Position numbers and translations under genes: made by a program. Shown here in pieces: positions 31,044 through 39,307 of a DNA stretch of 64,000 nt. Positions within the stretch are counted from its first letter, which is position 1; every line of letters starts with the position of its first letter. This DNA comes from a virus. Its lineage: Duplodnaviria > Caudoviricetes. The stretch covers positions 160,001 through 224,000 of IMG/VR virus record IMGVR_UViG_3300046820_001270; one strand, 5' to 3'. A model generated the notes under the pieces. That model worked only from the letters and a program-made list of their open reading frames with translations, did not search any database and had not been told where the DNA came from.

Positions 31044-31045
31044 AA

Positions 31046-31443
31046 GGTGGAGACGAAGGGAGTCGAACCCTTGTCTTTCCTGTTCAACAATAAATGACTA
31101 CACGTTTATTCAATTGGTTCTCAATTGACAAATAGAAGGTTAATATCAGGAAACCATCAATACTGTTCCTAACCGGATTTTCAAGAGCCGTCAAGTTTGC
31201 TCCAACACTCTAGGGTTATGTTCCACCGAAAGGACTTCTGTTCCTAGGTTATATGTCCGTCGACCCGTGCGTAGAGGCTAATCTAATTAGGCTGCTACTT
31301 TAGAAGTTGCAAGAATACCTGCAATTTCCATTGTGTTGTAAACGTTGTCGTTTAATTTTCTTCACCGTGGATTTAAGTCATAGATGAATTCTGACTACGT
31401 GCCATTTACCCCTGATACCTGAAATCAAATCCAAGGCGTCCCC
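31046..31443 (-). ncRNA. ssrA: tmRNA; predicted tag (A)DNVYNTMEIAGILATSKVAA*
   Basis: GGGGACG/CGTCTCC acceptor stem with G3-U70; T-arm AAGGG-TTCGACT-CCCTT; internal ORF ending GCA GCC TAA. Confidence 0.93.
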
Positions 31444-31754: not shown

Positions 31755-32435
31755 CTAAATTGTCAAGGGTAGTTGTTTTTCAAATAACGATTCAAACAGT
31801 AGTTTATTCTTTTCCCATTGCTTATTAGTCATACCTACAGATTTATGAGTAATCCCAAATTTGGTGGTTAAACCGACTTTAACACCTTCCATATAATTCT
31901 CAACACAGAATAAAATATCATAGAAATGAAACCCTTCAAACTGTTCGTTAAATTCCTTCTTTAGAATACTTTTATGAACCATAAAGAACAAACCATCCAC
32001 AATTACAACATCTTTAAGAACATCGTTAAATACCCCCTTAGAATAATGATTTACGTGTCTTTTACCCTCATGAAGATGACCAACTACGCCAAACATATTT
32101 TCACGGTTTTGCCACCACATTCCACTCGTTAATTTATCGGTCCCCGCAATCCCAATAATTCCATATTCAGGATGTTTCTCAAATAACTTAACAATCTTAG
32201 GTGTCATATTAGGTGTCTCCAAAATAAGGTCATCGTGCATGAAAACAACGATGTCGTTAACACTTTCTTTTAACCCTTTGTTATAGACTTGTGTTAAAGA
32301 CATTTCACCGTTATTTTCATACATCAATATTTCTGTATTTGGATGGGAAAACATTCTTTTTACATGATCGTAATATGTCGGATCAATTTTTCTTGTGGAT
32401 ATAACCACACTTACAACTTCATTATTCTTCGACAT
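31755..32435 (-). CDS. GT2-like glycosyltransferase
   Basis: VVFMHDD, GIIGIAG, VDGLF, GFHFYD. Confidence 0.8.
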   Translation of the reverse strand: MSKNNEVVSVVISTRKIDPTYYDHVKRMFSHPNTEILMYENNGEMSLTQVYNKGLKESVNDIVVFMHDDLILETPNMTPKIVKLFEKHPEYGIIGIAGTDKLTSGMWWQNRENMFGVVGHLHEGKRHVNHYSKGVFNDVLKDVVIVDGLFFMVHKSILKKEFNEQFEGFHFYDILFCVENYMEGVKVGLTTKFGITHKSVGMTNKQWEKNKLLFESLFEKQLPLTI

Positions 32436-33171
32436 ATAATACTTGTATTTTACCGTTAATTTCAACTAAGTCAACAACGATTGGTTTATTGGTTGGTTCA
32501 TATCCTGTGGTACATATCGCCGCATTTACAAATACAGTTTTTTTACCGTACTGAACCCCATATCCCTCGTGAATATGACCAAACACATTTACCAATGGAT
32601 TAATTTCACCAATTCTATTTATTAAACATTCACAACCAACGTGTGTATTTGGTTGTCTCCAATTATTAACTAAATCTCCATATCCATTAGGTGGACTATG
32701 TGTGATTAAAACATCCGTATCCTCAGGTATCATATTCCATTTCTCCTGTAATTCAGTTCCTAATCTCGGTAAGTTAAATGCCCAATCATAGAACCAAGGT
32801 TGCCAAGGACTACCATAAAATTTGATAGGTCTTGAAAATTCGGGAGTTTCAATTGTAATAAAACTGTCCTCTAAATAAGTCACGTCAGATTGTGATAAAT
32901 TTTCAGGAGACATTAAATGACTTAACCATTCATATGTACCTTTATAAGAAGGTTTATTAATTCTTTCAAAACAATAATCATGATTACCTGATATGAATAT
33001 TTTTTGATCCCATCCACCTAAGTTTTGAAACCAATCGATGAAATCTTTAACATCTTGTTCTCCACCTTTATTTGATAAATCTCCCGCATGAATTAATATA
33101 TCACCTTTTGGTAAAGGATGTTCCATCTGATGATGAAGGCTGTGGGTATCTGATATACATACTAATCTCAT
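32422..33171 (-). CDS. Calcineurin-like metallophosphoesterase (MPPED/239FB-like)
   Basis: CISDTH, IHAGD, GNHD, ITHSPP, FGHIHE; TATATTTG promoter at 33176-33183. Confidence 0.9.
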   Translation of the reverse strand: MRLVCISDTHSLHHQMEHPLPKGDILIHAGDLSNKGGEQDVKDFIDWFQNLGGWDQKIFISGNHDYCFERINKPSYKGTYEWLSHLMSPENLSQSDVTYLEDSFITIETPEFSRPIKFYGSPWQPWFYDWAFNLPRLGTELQEKWNMIPEDTDVLITHSPPNGYGDLVNNWRQPNTHVGCECLINRIGEINPLVNVFGHIHEGYGVQYGKKTVFVNAAICTTGYEPTNKPIVVDLVEINGKIQVLYVEE

Positions 33172-33204
33172 AAAACAAATATACAAATTATTTTCGAATA
33201 TGCA

Positions 33205-33232
33205 TAAAAAAAGTCAGAATTTCTTCTGACTT
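33205..33232 (-). terminator. Terminator downstream of the large ncRNA
   Basis: AAGTCAGAA-GAAA-TTCTGACTT followed by a T-tract. Confidence 0.85.
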
Positions 33233-33243
33233 AATTTTGTATA

Positions 33244-34115
33244 GGCCGTATGGTTTTACATACATTCACCACCACTTTGTTTTTCTAAACAAAGAAAATA
33301 AAACTCTGAGAATACAAGTTTTAACAATCGACTTAGGAACATTATTTGTTTCTTTCCCTTTCCACAACCTTTTGAGTTGTACCGATCAATGACGGTCAAT
33401 TAGATTAACCAATCCTAAAGTCATCAGATACTCTTTTATTACTTATTACTCAACAAATCTGCCGACCTGTTTCAACCTTGCGGGTTTAGAGAACTTTCTT
33501 AAAAATCATATTGGGATTGAGTCCCTTTATGGCCGTGAACCCCTCACGACTAAGTAGTCACCTGTCTCCAATGACTGACGAACACTTTTTCTTGTTATAT
33601 TTAAGTTGTTAAACCGTAATTAACAAAATTTAGTTATCCGAATTGGGAAAGTAGTGGTTCGTCACCTAGCCAAGTTATCTTTTGAACAACTCGATACTAA
33701 ACTACTCTCTGAAGTGTCCCCACCTCCATATTTTTGGTTTCCTTCGAGATTAAACCCTTGGTAGGATTTATTCAAGGACACTAACAGCACCACCTGTTTT
33801 TTGTCATACCTTCCATCTTACGATGCTACGGTTTTAAGACCACCATTGTATTGAATTACGCAATAATAAAGTCGGATAACTATACTTCTTACATTAATTC
33901 TATGGATTATTCTTATTGATGTTCCCATCTCAACCAAACAACTCGGATTGCTTGGTCATCCAACCCTTTCGCTACGGAGTTACCCTCACTACTTCAGGTT
34001 AAATGATATTCCACTTGTCTACTCGAGATCCATTTCTGAATCCGCAACTTACCCCAACCAAGGGTTTGTCACTTTATCCCACTTTCGTGGTTTATTTTAT
34101 TGACTATAGACGGCC
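33244..34115 (-). ncRNA. Large structured RNA, ~872 nt, probably GOLLD-class
   Basis: No credible ORF; own promoter (TATCTTTG 34167-34174), boxA-like site and terminator; ends pair (GGCCGT/ACGGCC); many hairpins with GNRA loops; adjacent to tRNAs. The family name is an inference. Confidence 0.7.
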
Positions 34116-34125
34116 AATATTTTTA

Positions 34126-34135
34126 TTCAAAGAAC
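34126..34135 (-). promoter_or_regulatory. boxA-like antitermination motif GTTCTTTGA
   Basis: Also at 37970-37979 and 38761-38770, always inside stable-RNA transcription units. Confidence 0.55.
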
Positions 34136-34205
34136 ATTATCTTTTGGGTTATTCACCCTTCTTTTACAAAGATAAGAAACTATTTCTAAAAAAAGAAATT
34201 ATTTC

Positions 34206-34430
34206 TTAATTATTTTCTACTTTATTTTTTTTAGACTGTTTTTTAGATGATACTTTATTATCACTTTTACCAGTTTTATATTCTGGATTCTTATAAAGTT
34301 TATATTCGGTTTTAGGTGCAAATGCCCAATTACCTCCTTTAACTCTTAAATCTGCTTCATTATTATCGATTCTTACCATTTCACCGATTTCATGACCCTT
34401 ACTTAATTTAATTAATTTAATACATTTCAT
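34206..34430 (-). CDS. Small basic protein with a canonical SD sequence
   Basis: GGAGGT 5 nt before ATG. Confidence 0.7.
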   Translation of the reverse strand: MKCIKLIKLSKGHEIGEMVRIDNNEADLRVKGGNWAFAPKTEYKLYKNPEYKTGKSDNKVSSKKQSKKNKVENN

Positions 34431-34484
34431 AGTTTACCTCCACGTTTTTTAAAAGATAAGTAATAATATTTTAAAAACAAAATT

Positions 34485-35663
34485 TTATTCACATTTTCCA
34501 CAATTTATTTTACAAACCTTTAGTTCGTTTCCACTACCTAAATCGTTATAAATAAACTTATCTAATATGTTGGTTTCCAATACTTCTTTTAATTTTTTAC
34601 CCTTCAATGAGAAGCTGTCAAATCCCAAATCTAACATTTTATTTAATATTTCTTTTTGAAACGAGTTTTCAAATCCATCCGAATAATTCATTGATATTGA
34701 TATATTAGGAGGTATTAAACAACACGGCATTATCATTTTATTATATGTAATAAATAAATGATAATCATCCGATTTAAGATCTGACGGATTTGAATAGTTT
34801 TTTGAATAACATGTTTGTTTTTTAATTAAATCAAAATTATTAATTTCATTTTGAGTAAAATTGTAATCGGTTCTCTCATACACTTTAGAAGTCCCTTTAA
34901 GTTCTTGTGATTTTTTAAAATCACCAATTTCTAATTCTTTAACAGGTATTGATGGAAGAGTATTTTTTAATTTTTCAAGGTCATCAAATTTCCATATTGT
35001 GTCATAGAATGGAGTATATTCTTCATTTTTAATTTCAGTTAAAAAATGAGTCAATTCACTTTTCATATTATGAACTGAAATTTTACCACCATTTGAAAAT
35101 GGTTTTTTAAGTAATAGATTACCTTTACCTAATGATTTAATAAAGTCAATCATCGGTATTATTTGATCCGTAGTTTCAGACCACATTAAAAATTGAATAA
35201 ATAACTTTTCTTTTTGACAATATTTGGTAAATGAATTGATGTTTTTAAGTATATTATCCCATTTAACATTAACCCTATATAATTCATTTTTTTCTCCAAT
35301 ACCATCTAACCCAAACATAATTTGCACACCTAATTTACCTAATTCTTCATAATCATTACTATTACCAATACCTCCATTGGTATTAATATTAACGGCAATT
35401 TTTGGGTTTAGTCGAATAAAGTATTTGATAATTTCTACCACATCTGGATTACCCATTGGATCTCCAAAATTACCACAAAGAGTTAATGTTTTTAAATTTG
35501 TTATTATGTCAATATCAATCGTATCAACAACATCATTTATTGACCAATATGTGTGTTCAAAATTACCGTAATGACCGAAACGTCTTCTTGAACAAACAGT
35601 ACAACCAGCATTACAAATTGATGAGATTTCAAAATCTAAATGTTGGATTGATTTTATGTTCAT
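34485..35663 (-). CDS. Radical SAM protein with C-terminal Cys cluster (SPASM/twitch-like)
   Basis: CNAGCTVC; MPCC; CKINCGKC. Confidence 0.88.
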   Translation of the reverse strand: MNIKSIQHLDFEISSICNAGCTVCSRRRFGHYGNFEHTYWSINDVVDTIDIDIITNLKTLTLCGNFGDPMGNPDVVEIIKYFIRLNPKIAVNINTNGGIGNSNDYEELGKLGVQIMFGLDGIGEKNELYRVNVKWDNILKNINSFTKYCQKEKLFIQFLMWSETTDQIIPMIDFIKSLGKGNLLLKKPFSNGGKISVHNMKSELTHFLTEIKNEEYTPFYDTIWKFDDLEKLKNTLPSIPVKELEIGDFKKSQELKGTSKVYERTDYNFTQNEINNFDLIKKQTCYSKNYSNPSDLKSDDYHLFITYNKMIMPCCLIPPNISISMNYSDGFENSFQKEILNKMLDLGFDSFSLKGKKLKEVLETNILDKFIYNDLGSGNELKVCKINCGKCE

Positions 35664-35809
35664 TTTTAAAATTTATTTTGAATGAGAATAATCAATAGGG
35701 ACAGTTCCTTCACTTCTGTCTTGTAACTCCGTACCAACTCAGCACTATTGATGTTTGATGGATGAAAAACATCTATTCTTCTTGTGGACTTCCATCGGAG
35801 TCCCATATC

Positions 35810-36040
35810 TTACAAAAATCTACTACCTTGTCTTCTTCTTGCTTCTTCAGCTTCTCTATACCAACGAATCCACGTTAATGCTACATCAATTGGTGCTAAG
35901 ACCCAAGCCATCATTATCACCATAATTGTATCTAACTCAGGTGAACCACCTGTTGGATCGTTAGAATACCTTTTGTTTAAATTTTTAAACAACTGGTATA
36001 AACAATAAATAATACAAATAACATAATAACCTAAAAACAT
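35810..36040 (-). CDS. Small membrane protein
   Basis: Two hydrophobic segments. Confidence 0.6.
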   Translation of the reverse strand: MFLGYYVICIIYCLYQLFKNLNKRYSNDPTGGSPELDTIMVIMMAWVLAPIDVALTWIRWYREAEEARRRQGSRFL

Positions 36041-36092
36041 AATATAAATTTTTTATAAATTACGAAAAATATCCCAAAAAACAAAATAACAT

Positions 36093-36908
36093 TTAAATTA
36101 ACATTTGCTTAAATTCCGTATCTGAAATTAATTTTTGATCATATCCAAAAAAATAAGACTCATTTGAGGTATACTGACATACTTTAGAATATTCATTTTT
36201 AGTTACTTTATCATTATAGTTTATGTTCAAATGATGTTCCCTTTGTCCATATAAATTTTTAAAATATGAATAGAATAACATAAACATAAAATTAAATTCA
36301 GCAGGAAAATCAGACAAAAACGGAAATTCTATAGTGTCAGTATTAAATGCAGTTTTTTTTAATTTATCATTAAACCCAATATTTTCTTTAATTATGGTGT
36401 TATTATTTGATTTAATAACATCGTTTATAGATTCAATTTTGATAAATTTAAAATTATTTTTAAATTTATTTTTATATAAAAGATTTAAATCTCCGTCAAG
36501 TACCTCTTCCTTAAAAAAAGAATTATCGTAAAAAAGTAATTGTGAACTCTGAGGTATGTAATGAAAATCATCACAAAATTGTAAAAATGTCCTATAATTT
36601 ATAATATACGAATTAATGTCAGTTATTTTGGAACTCCTTAAATAATCATTAATTTTTATTTTTTCCTCATGATCATTATCAAATTCAATCATTTGTTTCA
36701 TCCAAAAATATGAAGAAAAAAAACGATCAATAGGGTCTCGTGTAAAAATTATTTTTTTATCTAAAGATGTAGTTGTGTCAAATGAAAATTCAATTTCAAT
36801 TTTAAAATGTTGAAATAAATGACTTAATGTGGTATAAATTAAAGTATGTCCATTTTTAACAGGTATAAAAAAAGAGGTATTGTATTTCTTTAAATTAAGT
36901 ATTTCCAT
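36093..36908 (-). CDS. Sulfotransferase family 2-like protein
   Basis: FIPVKNGHT; RDPIDRFFSSY; HYIPQS. Confidence 0.7.
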   Translation of the reverse strand: MEILNLKKYNTSFFIPVKNGHTLIYTTLSHLFQHFKIEIEFSFDTTTSLDKKIIFTRDPIDRFFSSYFWMKQMIEFDNDHEEKIKINDYLRSSKITDINSYIINYRTFLQFCDDFHYIPQSSQLLFYDNSFFKEEVLDGDLNLLYKNKFKNNFKFIKIESINDVIKSNNNTIIKENIGFNDKLKKTAFNTDTIEFPFLSDFPAEFNFMFMLFYSYFKNLYGQREHHLNINYNDKVTKNEYSKVCQYTSNESYFFGYDQKLISDTEFKQMLI

Positions 36909-36925
36909 TATCTAATATATATCGG

Positions 36926-36997
36926 TATTCCCGACGGGATTCGAACCCGTATTACCTCCGTGAAAGGGAGGTGACCTAACCCTTAGTCGACAAGAAC
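36926..36997 (-). tRNA. tRNA-Glu(UUC)
   Basis: Cloverleaf, anticodon loop CTTTCAC, T-loop TTCGAAT; GU-rich acceptor stem. Confidence 0.88.
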
Positions 36998-37021
36998 AAA
37001 TAATCACTCAAATGGGTATTT

Positions 37022-37118
37022 GTTATAGTATCACAATCGGTGCACTGTACTCTGGTTAATTACTCCGTCTGTACCCAACAGCTTTATGTTGGCTTATAAT
37101 TGGCTACTTTACTATAAC
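37022..37118 (-). ncRNA. Candidate small structured RNA within the tRNA array
   Basis: 9-bp closing stem GTTATAGTA/TACTATAAC; CCAACA/TGTTGG hairpin; GG-AGTAATTAA-CC loop. Confidence 0.45.
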
Positions 37119-37149
37119 TCACATTTTTATTTGTGATTAAAAAAGATCC

Positions 37150-37258
37150 CGTTTTTTTTCTACATTTAGCCCAAGCACCAGTAGGTCAGTGTTTTGGGTT
37201 TTGACGCGAGAAGTCTACAAGGTTTCCCCATTAGACCGTTACCACGGGCAAACTCTAC
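37150..37258 (-). ncRNA. Candidate structured RNA with a possible pseudoknot
   Basis: CCGT/ACGG, GTCTA/TAGAC and CCCAA/TTGGG stems; loop CTAC complementary to downstream GTAG. Confidence 0.35.
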
Positions 37259-37260
37259 AG

Positions 37261-37347
37261 CGGAAGCGTAGGGATTTGAACCCCAGATACCTTTCGGTAT
37301 GCCAGTTTTCAAGACTGGTGCAATAAACCGGACTCTGCCACACTTCC
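37261..37347 (-). tRNA. tRNA-Ser(UGA)
   Basis: Cloverleaf with long variable arm, anticodon loop CTTGAAA. Confidence 0.93.
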
Positions 37348-37348
37348 A

Positions 37349-37909
37349 TTATTTATTAGAAACAATATATCCATTATATTCCAATACTTGAATACATTTT
37401 TCTAAAAATTCTTCTACAGAAATGTCACTTTTCATTTTATTTATCGAAAAACTTATTAATCCCGCATTTTCTATAGTGTTTTCACCACCTTTAGATGCCG
37501 GTGTAATATGATCAATACTATATGATTTAGTCTCATATAAATTAATTGGTTCACCCGATAAATAACATTTAGGTTCGTTTCCTATTTTTAACAAAAAATC
37601 TCCTATATTAAAAGTAAGTTCAGGTTTAGTAATTGATATTTTTGAACCTTCCCTTCTTTGAAAATCTCTAACTTTACTGAGAACTCTTTTACCTAAATTA
37701 TTCCTATATCTAAAATCATATAGTTTTTTTTGTAAAATAAATTCAGGTTTAGATGTTCTTTTAATACTTCTATTTTTTGTTTTTTCTTTTTGGTTATCAC
37801 CCAAATAATATGAAATTGTCGATTTACTACAATTCAATTCTTTCATTATTTTATTATAGGTATAACCTTCTTTTTTTAATTCAATAATTCTATTTCCAAG
37901 CTCTGTCAT
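37349..37909 (-). mobile_element. Free-standing HNH homing endonuclease (HTH + HNH) inside the tRNA array
   Basis: CSKSTISYY HTH; CYLSG..IDHITPASKGGENTIEN...N.MK. Confidence 0.85.
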
Positions 37910-37984
37910 GATATTCTTTATATATAAATATCAGGTTCGAACTAAAAAGTTAAAAATCGAACTTCTTATTTCAAAGAACGTTTG

Positions 37985-38058
37985 CGGAACAGACGAGACT
38001 CGAACTCGCGACCCCGGCAGTGACAGTGCCGTATTCTAACCAACTGAACTACCATTCC
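37985..38058 (-). tRNA. tRNA-Asp(GUC)
   Basis: Cloverleaf, anticodon loop CTGTCAC. Confidence 0.93.
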
Positions 38059-38063
38059 TAATT

Positions 38064-38153
38064 ATCACATCAAACAGGGATTCTACTTCCCGCAGCACGA
38101 AATTGTATCTTACTTAGCCCTACGTTAGCGGTATGGGTACCTGAAGATATGAT
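38064..38153 (-). ncRNA. Candidate structured RNA
   Basis: ATCATATC/GATGTGAT and CAGG/CCTG stems; CCC-TAC/GTA-GGG hairpin; CCGC/GCGG possible pseudoknot. Confidence 0.4.
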
Positions 38154-38156
38154 TTG

Positions 38157-38232
38157 TGGGTGAGTTTGGATTCGAACCAAAGACCTAAAGTTTATGAGAC
38201 TTTTGCTCTAAAACCAGCTGAGCTACACACCC
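38157..38232 (-). tRNA. tRNA with CAU anticodon (elongator Met or lysidine Ile2)
   Basis: Cloverleaf, loop CTCATAA, no initiator features. Confidence 0.88.
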
Positions 38233-38256
38233 TATTAGTCTTTTCCTTACCTCTTA

Positions 38257-38317
38257 ATAACCACATTGCCATCCCGGTGTTACTGCCGGGTGCTTACCAC
38301 TTGCGTGGAGTGATTAT
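38257..38317 (-). ncRNA. Candidate 3-way-junction RNA (~61 nt)
   Basis: ATAATCAC/GTGGTTAT; CCAC-GCAA-GTGG; CCCGG/CCGGG. Confidence 0.5.
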
Positions 38318-38324
38318 CACGTTG

Positions 38325-38397
38325 CGCTCCCTGAGGGTCACGATCCCCCGACTTCAAAATTAACAGTTTTGCGCTCTACCAACTGAGCTAAGGAAGC
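38325..38397 (-). tRNA. tRNA-Asn(GUU) with atypical T-loop ATCGTGA
   Basis: Cloverleaf, anticodon loop CTGTTAA. Confidence 0.85.
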
Positions 38398-38483
38398 GTG
38401 TTTGATTCCAACCCAACTTAAGTTGCACCATCCGTGTCATGCACTGGTTAACAAAGTCCTCGTTGAGTTAGTTTCAAAAAGTT

Positions 38484-38666
38484 ACAGGTTTTTCGTACCA
38501 TCTATGTACATCATGTCCGAGACTGATTCATGAATCGGAGGTTACTTTTCGCTTAATGGTTAATTACTCCAACTTATAGTAACTCTACTCTCACCGTTCT
38601 ACATCTAGATTCAAACGGATAGTTGAGATTCATAGACAGTGGGGTCACACCACCGTCGTCACCTGT
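38484..38666 (-). ncRNA. Candidate multibranched RNA (~183 nt)
   Basis: ACAGGT/ACCTGT, TCTATG/CATAGA, GTTACT/AGTAAC, CCGTT/AACGG and TCCGA/TCGGA stems. Confidence 0.5.
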
Positions 38667-38668
38667 TG

Positions 38669-38741
38669 AGCCTAAGGTCAGATTCGAACTGACGACCTGC
38701 TGATTACAAATCAGCTGCTCTACCAACTGAGCTACTCAGGC
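38669..38741 (-). tRNA. tRNA-Thr(UGU)
   Basis: Cloverleaf, anticodon loop TTTGTAA. Confidence 0.95.
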
Positions 38742-38781
38742 TTATTTTCTACTATTTTATGTCAAAGAACCACTTATCTTA

Positions 38782-38812
38782 CAAAGATAATAAATAAATT
38801 CGGATATACAAA
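38782..38812 (-). promoter_or_regulatory. Internal Bacteroidota sigma70-type promoter in the tRNA array
   Basis: TTTG-N19-TATCTTTG followed by a boxA-like site. Confidence 0.75.
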
Positions 38813-38834
38813 ATTATTCTTAAATCTTTTTTTG

Positions 38835-38906
38835 AGGTCTCGGGTAGGGTCGAACTACCAACTTGAAATCCGTAGTTTCATGTGATCACCATTTCACCAC
38901 AAGACC
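38835..38906 (-). tRNA. tRNA-Arg(ACG)
   Basis: Cloverleaf, anticodon loop CTACGGA. Confidence 0.88.
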
Positions 38907-38913
38907 ATTTTAG

Positions 38914-38982
38914 TTGCGGGACCGGTAGTCGAAACCGGAAAAACACAGCTTATGAGACTGGTCGGGAACCCTCCTCCCCGCA
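38914..38982 (-). tRNA. Short-D-arm tRNA with CAU anticodon (69 nt)
   Basis: TGCGGGG/TCCCGCA acceptor stem, CTCATAA loop, CCGGT-TTCGACT-ACCGG; only 14 nt between acceptor and anticodon stems. Confidence 0.7.
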
Positions 38983-38986
38983 ATTT

Positions 38987-39060
38987 TGGATGTCCCTCGT
39001 GGATTCGAACCACAGCTAGATGGACCAAAACCACCTGTACTACCTCTATACTAAAGGACA
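38987..39060 (-). tRNA. tRNA-Gln(UUG), CCA encoded
   Basis: Cloverleaf, anticodon loop TTTTGGT. Confidence 0.92.
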
Positions 39061-39065
39061 ATATG

Positions 39066-39145
39066 TACCCAAGGTCGGACTCGAACCGACACGTCTCTCG
39101 ACACGGTTTCTAAGACCGCCGTGTATCCCATTCCACCACTCGGGT
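39066..39145 (-). tRNA. tRNA-Leu(UAG)
   Basis: Cloverleaf with variable arm, anticodon loop CTTAGAA. Confidence 0.92.
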
Positions 39146-39152
39146 ATTGTTG

Positions 39153-39224
39153 CACCCATGTAAGGACTCGAACCTTCATCTTCGGTTTTGGAGACCGACG
39201 TTCTACCAATTGAACTACACAGAT
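39153..39224 (-). tRNA. tRNA-Trp(CCA)
   Basis: Cloverleaf, anticodon loop CTCCAAA; wobble-rich acceptor stem. Confidence 0.88.
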
Positions 39225-39231
39225 ATGTTTG

Positions 39232-39307
39232 TCTAGATGGCTGGATTCGAACCAACGTGTTCTGCTTTCCAAAAGCAGCGAGAAAAGCCGGACTCCTCTA
39301 CATCTAG
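39232..39307 (-). tRNA. tRNA-Pro(UGG)
   Basis: Cloverleaf, anticodon loop TTTGGAA, C1-G72/A73. Confidence 0.92.

Follow-up and report, generated by a model that had tools for sequence, protein, structure and literature searches.

A probable full-length GOLLD RNA gene with an rRNA-style boxA leader in a large freshwater phage

The minus strand of the window, by which we mean the whole 64,000-nt stretch of DNA analyzed here, very probably carries the gene for a full-length GOLLD RNA of a large freshwater phage, with promoter, leader, both RNA domains, tail, and terminator arranged as a single unit. What is new, if modestly so, is the rRNA-style promoter-boxA leader on the GOLLD gene, which is common to the phage's tRNA operons. 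The unit comprises the following features, in the direction of transcription:

34174-34167, minus strand: -7 promoter box TATCTTTG of the Bacteroidota type, part of a shared 12-mer and conserved in relatives
34158-34146, minus strand: leader hairpin GGGU-GAAUA-ACCC between promoter and boxA (predicted fold, weak, z -1.8)
34135-34127, minus strand: boxA motif GUUCUUUGA of the rrn type, located in the leader 32 nt downstream of the -7 box and 11 nt upstream of what looks like the mature 5' end
34115-33710, minus strand: GOLLD 5' domain of ~406 nt, starting with an invariant GGCCG and with homologs on more than 40 contigs in IMG/VR and in two 640-kb phages
33709-33303, minus strand: GOLLD 3' domain (RF02032), with 90 predicted pairs, 74 of them compensatory
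33302-33244, minus strand: lineage-specific 3' tail of ~57 nt, with hairpins at 33294-33275 and 33264-33247 followed by ACGGCC at 33249-33244 (predicted fold)
33232-33204, minus strand: intrinsic terminator with a 9-bp stem AAGUCAGAA/UUCUGACUU, a GAAA loop, and a U run at 33210-33204 (terminator scan and predicted fold)

When the whole window was compared with Rfam 15 using Infernal, the GOLLD model RF02032 matched the minus strand at 33709-33303 with 298.5 bits (E 2e-84) over model positions 1-416 of 416, about twice its gathering score of 150, and no other Rfam family reached its gathering score on this stretch; ROOL had no match at the gathering threshold anywhere in the window. The locus is a further GOLLD and not a new RNA class, since the match is full length and at twice the gathering score. 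The original prediction, which had called a GOLLD-like noncoding RNA of ~870 nt, is thereby confirmed, at the cost in novelty that it had foreseen for a strong match. GOLLD is among the largest bacterial or phage noncoding RNAs, and its cage exceeds the ribosome in size; the literature reference for the family is Weinberg et al. (2009). The Rfam model covers the conserved 3' half of the RNA only, so that, given the minus-strand stems and the size of the stretch, the 5' half was to be expected upstream, at higher coordinates. The total length of the RNA is 813-815 nt plus the ~57-nt tail, and this size fits GOLLD as predicted, as does the context of a phage with 11 tRNAs and a tmRNA within 6 kb (ARAGORN, Rfam). 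The stretch was further described as free of open reading frames and enriched in GC: no ORF on either strand exceeds 68 aa, and GC content is 36-39% over 33300-34199 vs. 24-31% in the flanks.

Among GenBank phages, blastn returned two uncultured phages only, of 642 kb and 635 kb, with homology from window position 34108 and full GOLLD matches in both. Querying IMG/VR with an invariant 16-mer of the 5' half gave 53 viral loci, of which about 44 are homologous over the full RNA (66-98% identity) and lie on contigs as long as 483 kb; all relatives scanned with the GOLLD model gave GOLLD matches. The same 16-mer had 62 matches in one genome per prokaryote species, a single one of them a real GOLLD and the remainder by chance. 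That one (L070) lies on a 5.9-kb contig binned with a Saccharibacteria MAG, probably a mis-binned phage contig, and the scan of prokaryote genomes provided no host assignment from prophages. Comparison of ten large ORFs of the window with PHROG recovered no capsid and no terminase, and the putative viral origin rests on the relatives, which are viral contigs.

The alignment A2 of 32 full-length sequences was folded with RNAalifold, flanks included, and the resulting structure has 192 predicted pairs, 140 of them with compensatory changes. For counts per domain the conserved columns were folded separately, and the controls were pairs with partners slid by 1-3 columns and 200 column shuffles. 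In the 5' domain, where 98.3% of the cells of 100 pairs are canonical, double changes occur in 66/100 pairs vs. 14-25 with slid partners and at most 52 in shuffles; the corresponding figures for the 3' domain are 74/90 pairs vs. 17-35 and at most 61. Covariation extends across the whole RNA and both of its domains. The alignment published with PMC12286853 is gapped and confined to the 3' domain, which is why the invariant 16-mer was not found in the supplements of that paper. The 32-sequence full-length alignment presented here contributes covariation data for the less studied 5' domain.

GOLLD is present as RNA in lake libraries. Parts of the stretch are contained in 16 RNA runs from lake, river, and other fresh water, and in four of these runs, each from a different study, contigs span 33275-34097 at a word depth of 10^2-10^4. 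The flanking genes have a word depth of 0-5, a difference that is no measure of transcript boundaries or expression level, as contigs cannot show transcript ends or levels and missing cover or depth cannot rank genes. None of the listed RNA contigs reaches beyond 34097, a point 18 nt inside the conserved 5' end, or includes the leader at 34116-34160, which may have been trimmed off, or the RNA may start elsewhere. The recurrent contig ends at 34097 and 33393 are probably branch points of the assembly graph. In one contig from one run, 33735 is joined to 34069 with a 29-nt side, skipping 333 nt of the 5' domain; this joint may be an assembly chimera or stem from a shorter relative.

The original prediction had given the RNA a promoter, a boxA, and a terminator of its own, and comparative tests uphold all three, with one correction: the promoter lies upstream of the interval 33244-34115 and is a -7 box of the Bacteroidota type, not a σ70-type -35/-10 pair. 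TAnnTTTG is known from Bacteroides promoter studies as the -7 box of Bacteroidota promoters, where it takes the place of -35/-10 elements. Transcription would start at ~34160-34163, giving a leader of ~45 nt that consists of boxA and of the small hairpin, which near relatives retain with G-U or compensating substitutions. The exact 12-mer TTATCTTTGTAA has two copies in the window, one before GOLLD and one at 38790-38779 before tRNA-Thr, and in the tRNA-Thr unit (38790-38762, minus strand) it is followed 8 nt later by the boxA GTTCTTTGA; a one-mismatch copy, GTATCTTTGTAA (39509-39498, minus strand), heads the entire tRNA array. Together these copies suggest a stable-RNA promoter class common to GOLLD and the tRNA units.

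The nonamer GTTCTTTGA has 4 copies in the window vs. 0.89 expected, and 0/100 shuffles reach 4; three of these copies belong to the RNA-gene cluster and are on the minus strand. In the relatives, counting the 38 that have enough upstream sequence, GTTCTTT[GA]A is found within 200 nt upstream of GOLLD in 36 (at 21-113 nt), as compared with 0.18% of shuffled upstream regions, and 26 of the 38 have a TAnnTTT[GA] box 8-70 nt ahead of it. Judged by its sequence, GTTCTTTGA is the rRNA-leader boxA of Bacteroidota, since it also precedes the 16S rRNA gene, by 78-137 nt, in 7/9 sampled genomes of that phylum. Its place behind the promoter argues that boxA is transcribed, and the motif itself points to an antitermination signal; together, the promoter and boxA types make Bacteroidota the likely host phylum. 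On the comparison of these loci, boxA characterizes this clade, not the GOLLD family as a whole, because three GOLLD loci from phages of other phyla, namely phiCbK, Vibrio phage 70E35.6, and Mycobacterium phage Bongo, have no boxA-like motif upstream of GOLLD with the pattern used. A literature search for GOLLD and boxA brought up nothing relevant and no paper linking the two in the library searched, and a full-text search for the boxA 9-mer found unrelated primer lists only.

The most serious alternative, which we consider unlikely but well worth weighing, is that GTTCTTTGA acts as some other stable-RNA signal, either a processing site or a DNA-level promoter element, rather than as an antitermination boxA. 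The case for boxA consists of sequence motif and position, only 11 nt separate the motif from the apparently mature 5' end, a plausible place for a processing site, and the copy at 37979-37971 stands behind tRNA-Asp and not behind a promoter. Against this, the 16S leaders of 7/9 Bacteroidota genomes hold the motif at the usual boxA distance, the motif is always downstream of the -7 box, and in the relatives it lies anywhere between 21 and 113 nt from GOLLD, unlike a fixed processing signal. boxA elements preceding long RNAs that are not translated, among them rRNA and CRISPR arrays, are also well established, and an antitermination boxA remains the reading we prefer.

The GOLLD gene is embedded in a cluster of RNA and protein genes. 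Its downstream neighbors encode a metallophosphoesterase and a family-2 glycosyltransferase, HNH endonucleases are encoded in the window, and the other nearby genes referred to here are:

31045-31443, minus strand: tmRNA (Rfam 80.7 bits; ARAGORN tag peptide ending in ...ATSKVAA), 1.8 kb downstream of GOLLD
34206-34430, minus strand: 74-aa ORF with no family match, the upstream neighbor
34485-35663, minus strand: radical SAM protein gene, also upstream

The third boxA copy (37979-37971, minus strand) comes directly after tRNA-Asp and before an HNH endonuclease ORF (37349-37909) that is inserted in the tRNA array.

This arrangement allows for GOLLD to be cut from a longer transcript, produced by read-through from the radical SAM operon or as part of tRNA transcripts, a scenario we regard as improbable. 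In its favor, the genes from 31755 to 39307 all share one strand, a tRNA directly precedes or follows GOLLD in many relatives, the megaphage relatives have a boxA with no -7 box within 200 nt, and the upstream 74-aa ORF is followed by a weak, A/U-rich hairpin that resembles a terminator. What speaks for a separate unit instead is that GOLLD has its own exact copy of the tRNA-Thr promoter 12-mer, that the -7 box ahead of boxA is kept in 26/38 relatives, and that a strong terminator, itself conserved in near relatives, follows the gene.

Less probable still is transcription from the σ70-like sequence TTGAAT-16 nt-TATAGT at 34130-34103, which would place the start near 34097 and leave GGCCGUCUAU and boxA untranscribed. 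The site scores 9/12 in a promoter scan, a perfect TTGACA-17-TATAGT occurs in the relative L039 and a correctly spaced TTGnnn in several others, and RNA contigs from two strain variants both stop at 34097. The last point carries no information on RNA ends, as it is the assembly graph that determines where contigs end, and promoter-like sites are fewer in number than in shuffles (6 vs. 7.6). In addition, TATAGT must itself be transcribed because it lies inside helix P1 of the 5' domain, which covaries without broken pairs in 32 sequences; moreover, the cage-forming env-38 RNA starts 2 nt before GGCCGC, and the -7 box is the element that Bacteroidota use. The Bacteroidota-type promoter is therefore retained here, and the helix in question is:

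34111-34106, minus strand: 5' strand GUCUAU of helix P1, pairing with GUAGAC at 34022-34017 and covarying

Among the 32 sequences, one pair of P1 is UA in 16 and CG in 16 and the next is CG in 18, AU in 8, UA in 4, and GC in 2, with none broken. Four of the internal stems listed in the original prediction proved real on the minus strand: CCAC-GAAA-GUGG (34090-34079) and ACCAAGCA/UGUUUGGU (33956-33933) covary across the 32 homologs, as does ACAAC/GUUGU in the 3' domain, and CAUC-GUAA-GAUG forms an extension hairpin that varies between lineages, occurs in only some members of the clade, and shows its own compensatory changes. The fifth, CUUUGUUU/AAACAAAG (33294-33275), also exists but lies in the tail beyond the family model; it is restricted to near relatives, with one compensatory variant, CUUAG/CUAAG. 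While the absence of ORFs, the GC enrichment, and these five stems held up, the closing stem proposed between the two ends, GGCCGU (34115-34110) and ACGGCC (33249-33244), did not: the letters are there, and the pairing is unsupported. A run at least as long arises in 63/500 shuffles of the 101-nt tail, the stem is missing outside the clade of at least 86% identity, the G and U of GGCCGU at 34111-34110 lie in P1 and hence compete with it, and the ACG of ACGGCC forms a local hairpin in the predicted tail fold. The stem is accordingly rejected as a chance-level match of near relatives.

The variable position 34112 (column 90) has no partner inside the conserved RNA, and an apparent covariation at 34115-34102 was discarded, as it comes from one clade only and hence represents a single event. 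In L039 (2059-3057; A2 columns 103-139), a 36-nt insertion adds two extra tetraloop hairpins right after the 5' strand of P1, a point at which the 5' domain evidently tolerates added modules.

The env-38 GOLLD RNA has been solved by cryo-EM as a hollow cage, a 14-mer with D7 symmetry (Kretsch et al. 2025, PMC12286853). Its construct opens with AUGGCCGC, followed by UAUGGUCGU, AAAUAAA, GAAAG, and GGAUAAAGUGG, and the order of motifs is the same in the window, a comparison made by eye and limited to the ~115 nt at the 5' end of the construct given in the supplement. Shared between env-38 and A2, in order, are GGCCGC, UAUGGUCGU, AAAUAAA, the GAAAG tetraloop hairpin, GGAUAAAGUGG, CUGCGG, and GAGUAGGCAAGUG. 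Because of these ordered opening motifs we take the RNA in the window to be a full-length homolog of the solved env-38 RNA, and the conventional 5' end of the family falls within 2 nt of the predicted 34115. The domain sizes are similar (~406 + ~407 nt here vs. 420 + 413 nt in env-38), and both RNAs contain a variable linker and belong to phages that encode them next to tRNAs; the GC/CG self-complementary loop of env-38 has a candidate counterpart here. They differ in that the RNA described here continues into a ~57-nt tail with two hairpins and its own terminator, has no abutting tRNA and no tRNA in its linker, is preceded by a leader with a Bacteroidota promoter and boxA, and belongs to a freshwater phage as opposed to a marine sample. 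Given the full-length RF02032 match at twice the gathering score, the homology of the 5' domain to env-38, and the failure of every other Rfam family to pass its gathering score here, the reading as a new giant RNA class merely resembling GOLLD is ruled out for practical purposes, with nothing in its favor after testing.

The 3' domain contains three further elements of interest:

33663-33657 / 33583-33577, minus strand: linker-closing helix, covarying (GC 26 / AU 4 / CG 2, UA 14 / CG 13 / GC 4, and similar)
33652-33587, minus strand: variable linker loop of 66 nt, A/U-rich, poorly conserved, and of variable length in A2
33463-33460, minus strand: hairpin loop GGCA with a self-complementary central GC, a candidate symmetric kissing loop

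The linker matches the disordered linker of env-38 by position, and ARAGORN detects no tRNA inside 33652-33587. The structure line of the Rfam model shows no pairing at the positions of the linker-closing helix. At 33463-33460, the hairpin loop is GGCA in 25 of the 32 homologs, GCA in 4, and GCGA in 3, that is, with a GC-to-CG switch. A GC/CG switch has also been described for GOLLD loop L21a (bridge B8), a symmetric intersubunit kissing loop (PMC12286853), of which the loop here is, by position only, a candidate equivalent. The 3' end of the RNA as defined by the family lies at ~33301-33303, and the tail that follows is restricted to the near clade; in distant relatives a tRNA comes directly after the GOLLD 3' end.

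By analogy with env-38, to which it is roughly 70% identical, the RNA would self-assemble without protein into a 14-copy hollow cage, capped by its 5' domains, with a ring made of the 3' domains and the linker directed inward. During its synthesis host Nus factors may bind boxA and shield the transcript, which is long and untranslated, from termination by Rho, in the way known for rRNA operons. The leader resembles that of an rRNA operon in that the same 9-mer comes shortly after the promoter and precedes a structured RNA that is long and untranslated, and differs from it in standing before a phage noncoding RNA and phage tRNAs, where Nus binding and an effect on Rho are putative. As the exact promoter 12-mer is common to the GOLLD and tRNA operons, GOLLD would be coproduced with the phage's translation RNAs, and boxA and the shared promoter together suggest its production in bulk as a stable RNA alongside them. 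Our best guess from this context is that the cage might hold or organize translation components, tRNAs or ribosomes, during infection.

We tentatively propose, as a possibility still short of probable, that in a clade of freshwater Bacteroidota phages including the 640-kb megaphages, GOLLD is a Nus/boxA-antiterminated stable RNA that uses a tRNA-operon promoter and belongs to a "translation RNA" regulon. If true, this would argue that the cage takes part in the handling of tRNAs or ribosomes and would offer a first regulatory handle on GOLLD. The locus in any case provides a clean natural example, in which both domains are homologous to a solved structure and the promoter, leader, and terminator can be named.

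Other systems place the locus in a wider setting. ROOL is likewise phage-borne, found near tRNAs, and assembled into an RNA-only cage (PMC12286853), but it is distinct from the RNA described here in sequence and fold. Caulobacter phage phiCbK, Bongo, and Vibrio phage 70E35.6 resemble the window in holding the giant RNA within a tRNA island and differ from it in the absence of a GTTCTTTGA-type motif upstream. In phiCbK (L127), a tRNA-Gly is annotated at 102638-102709 within the linker of the GOLLD 3' domain, unlike in the window, whose linker has none. In Bongo the order is tmRNA, tRNA, GOLLD, tRNA, and the window likewise runs from tmRNA through GOLLD to the tRNA array.
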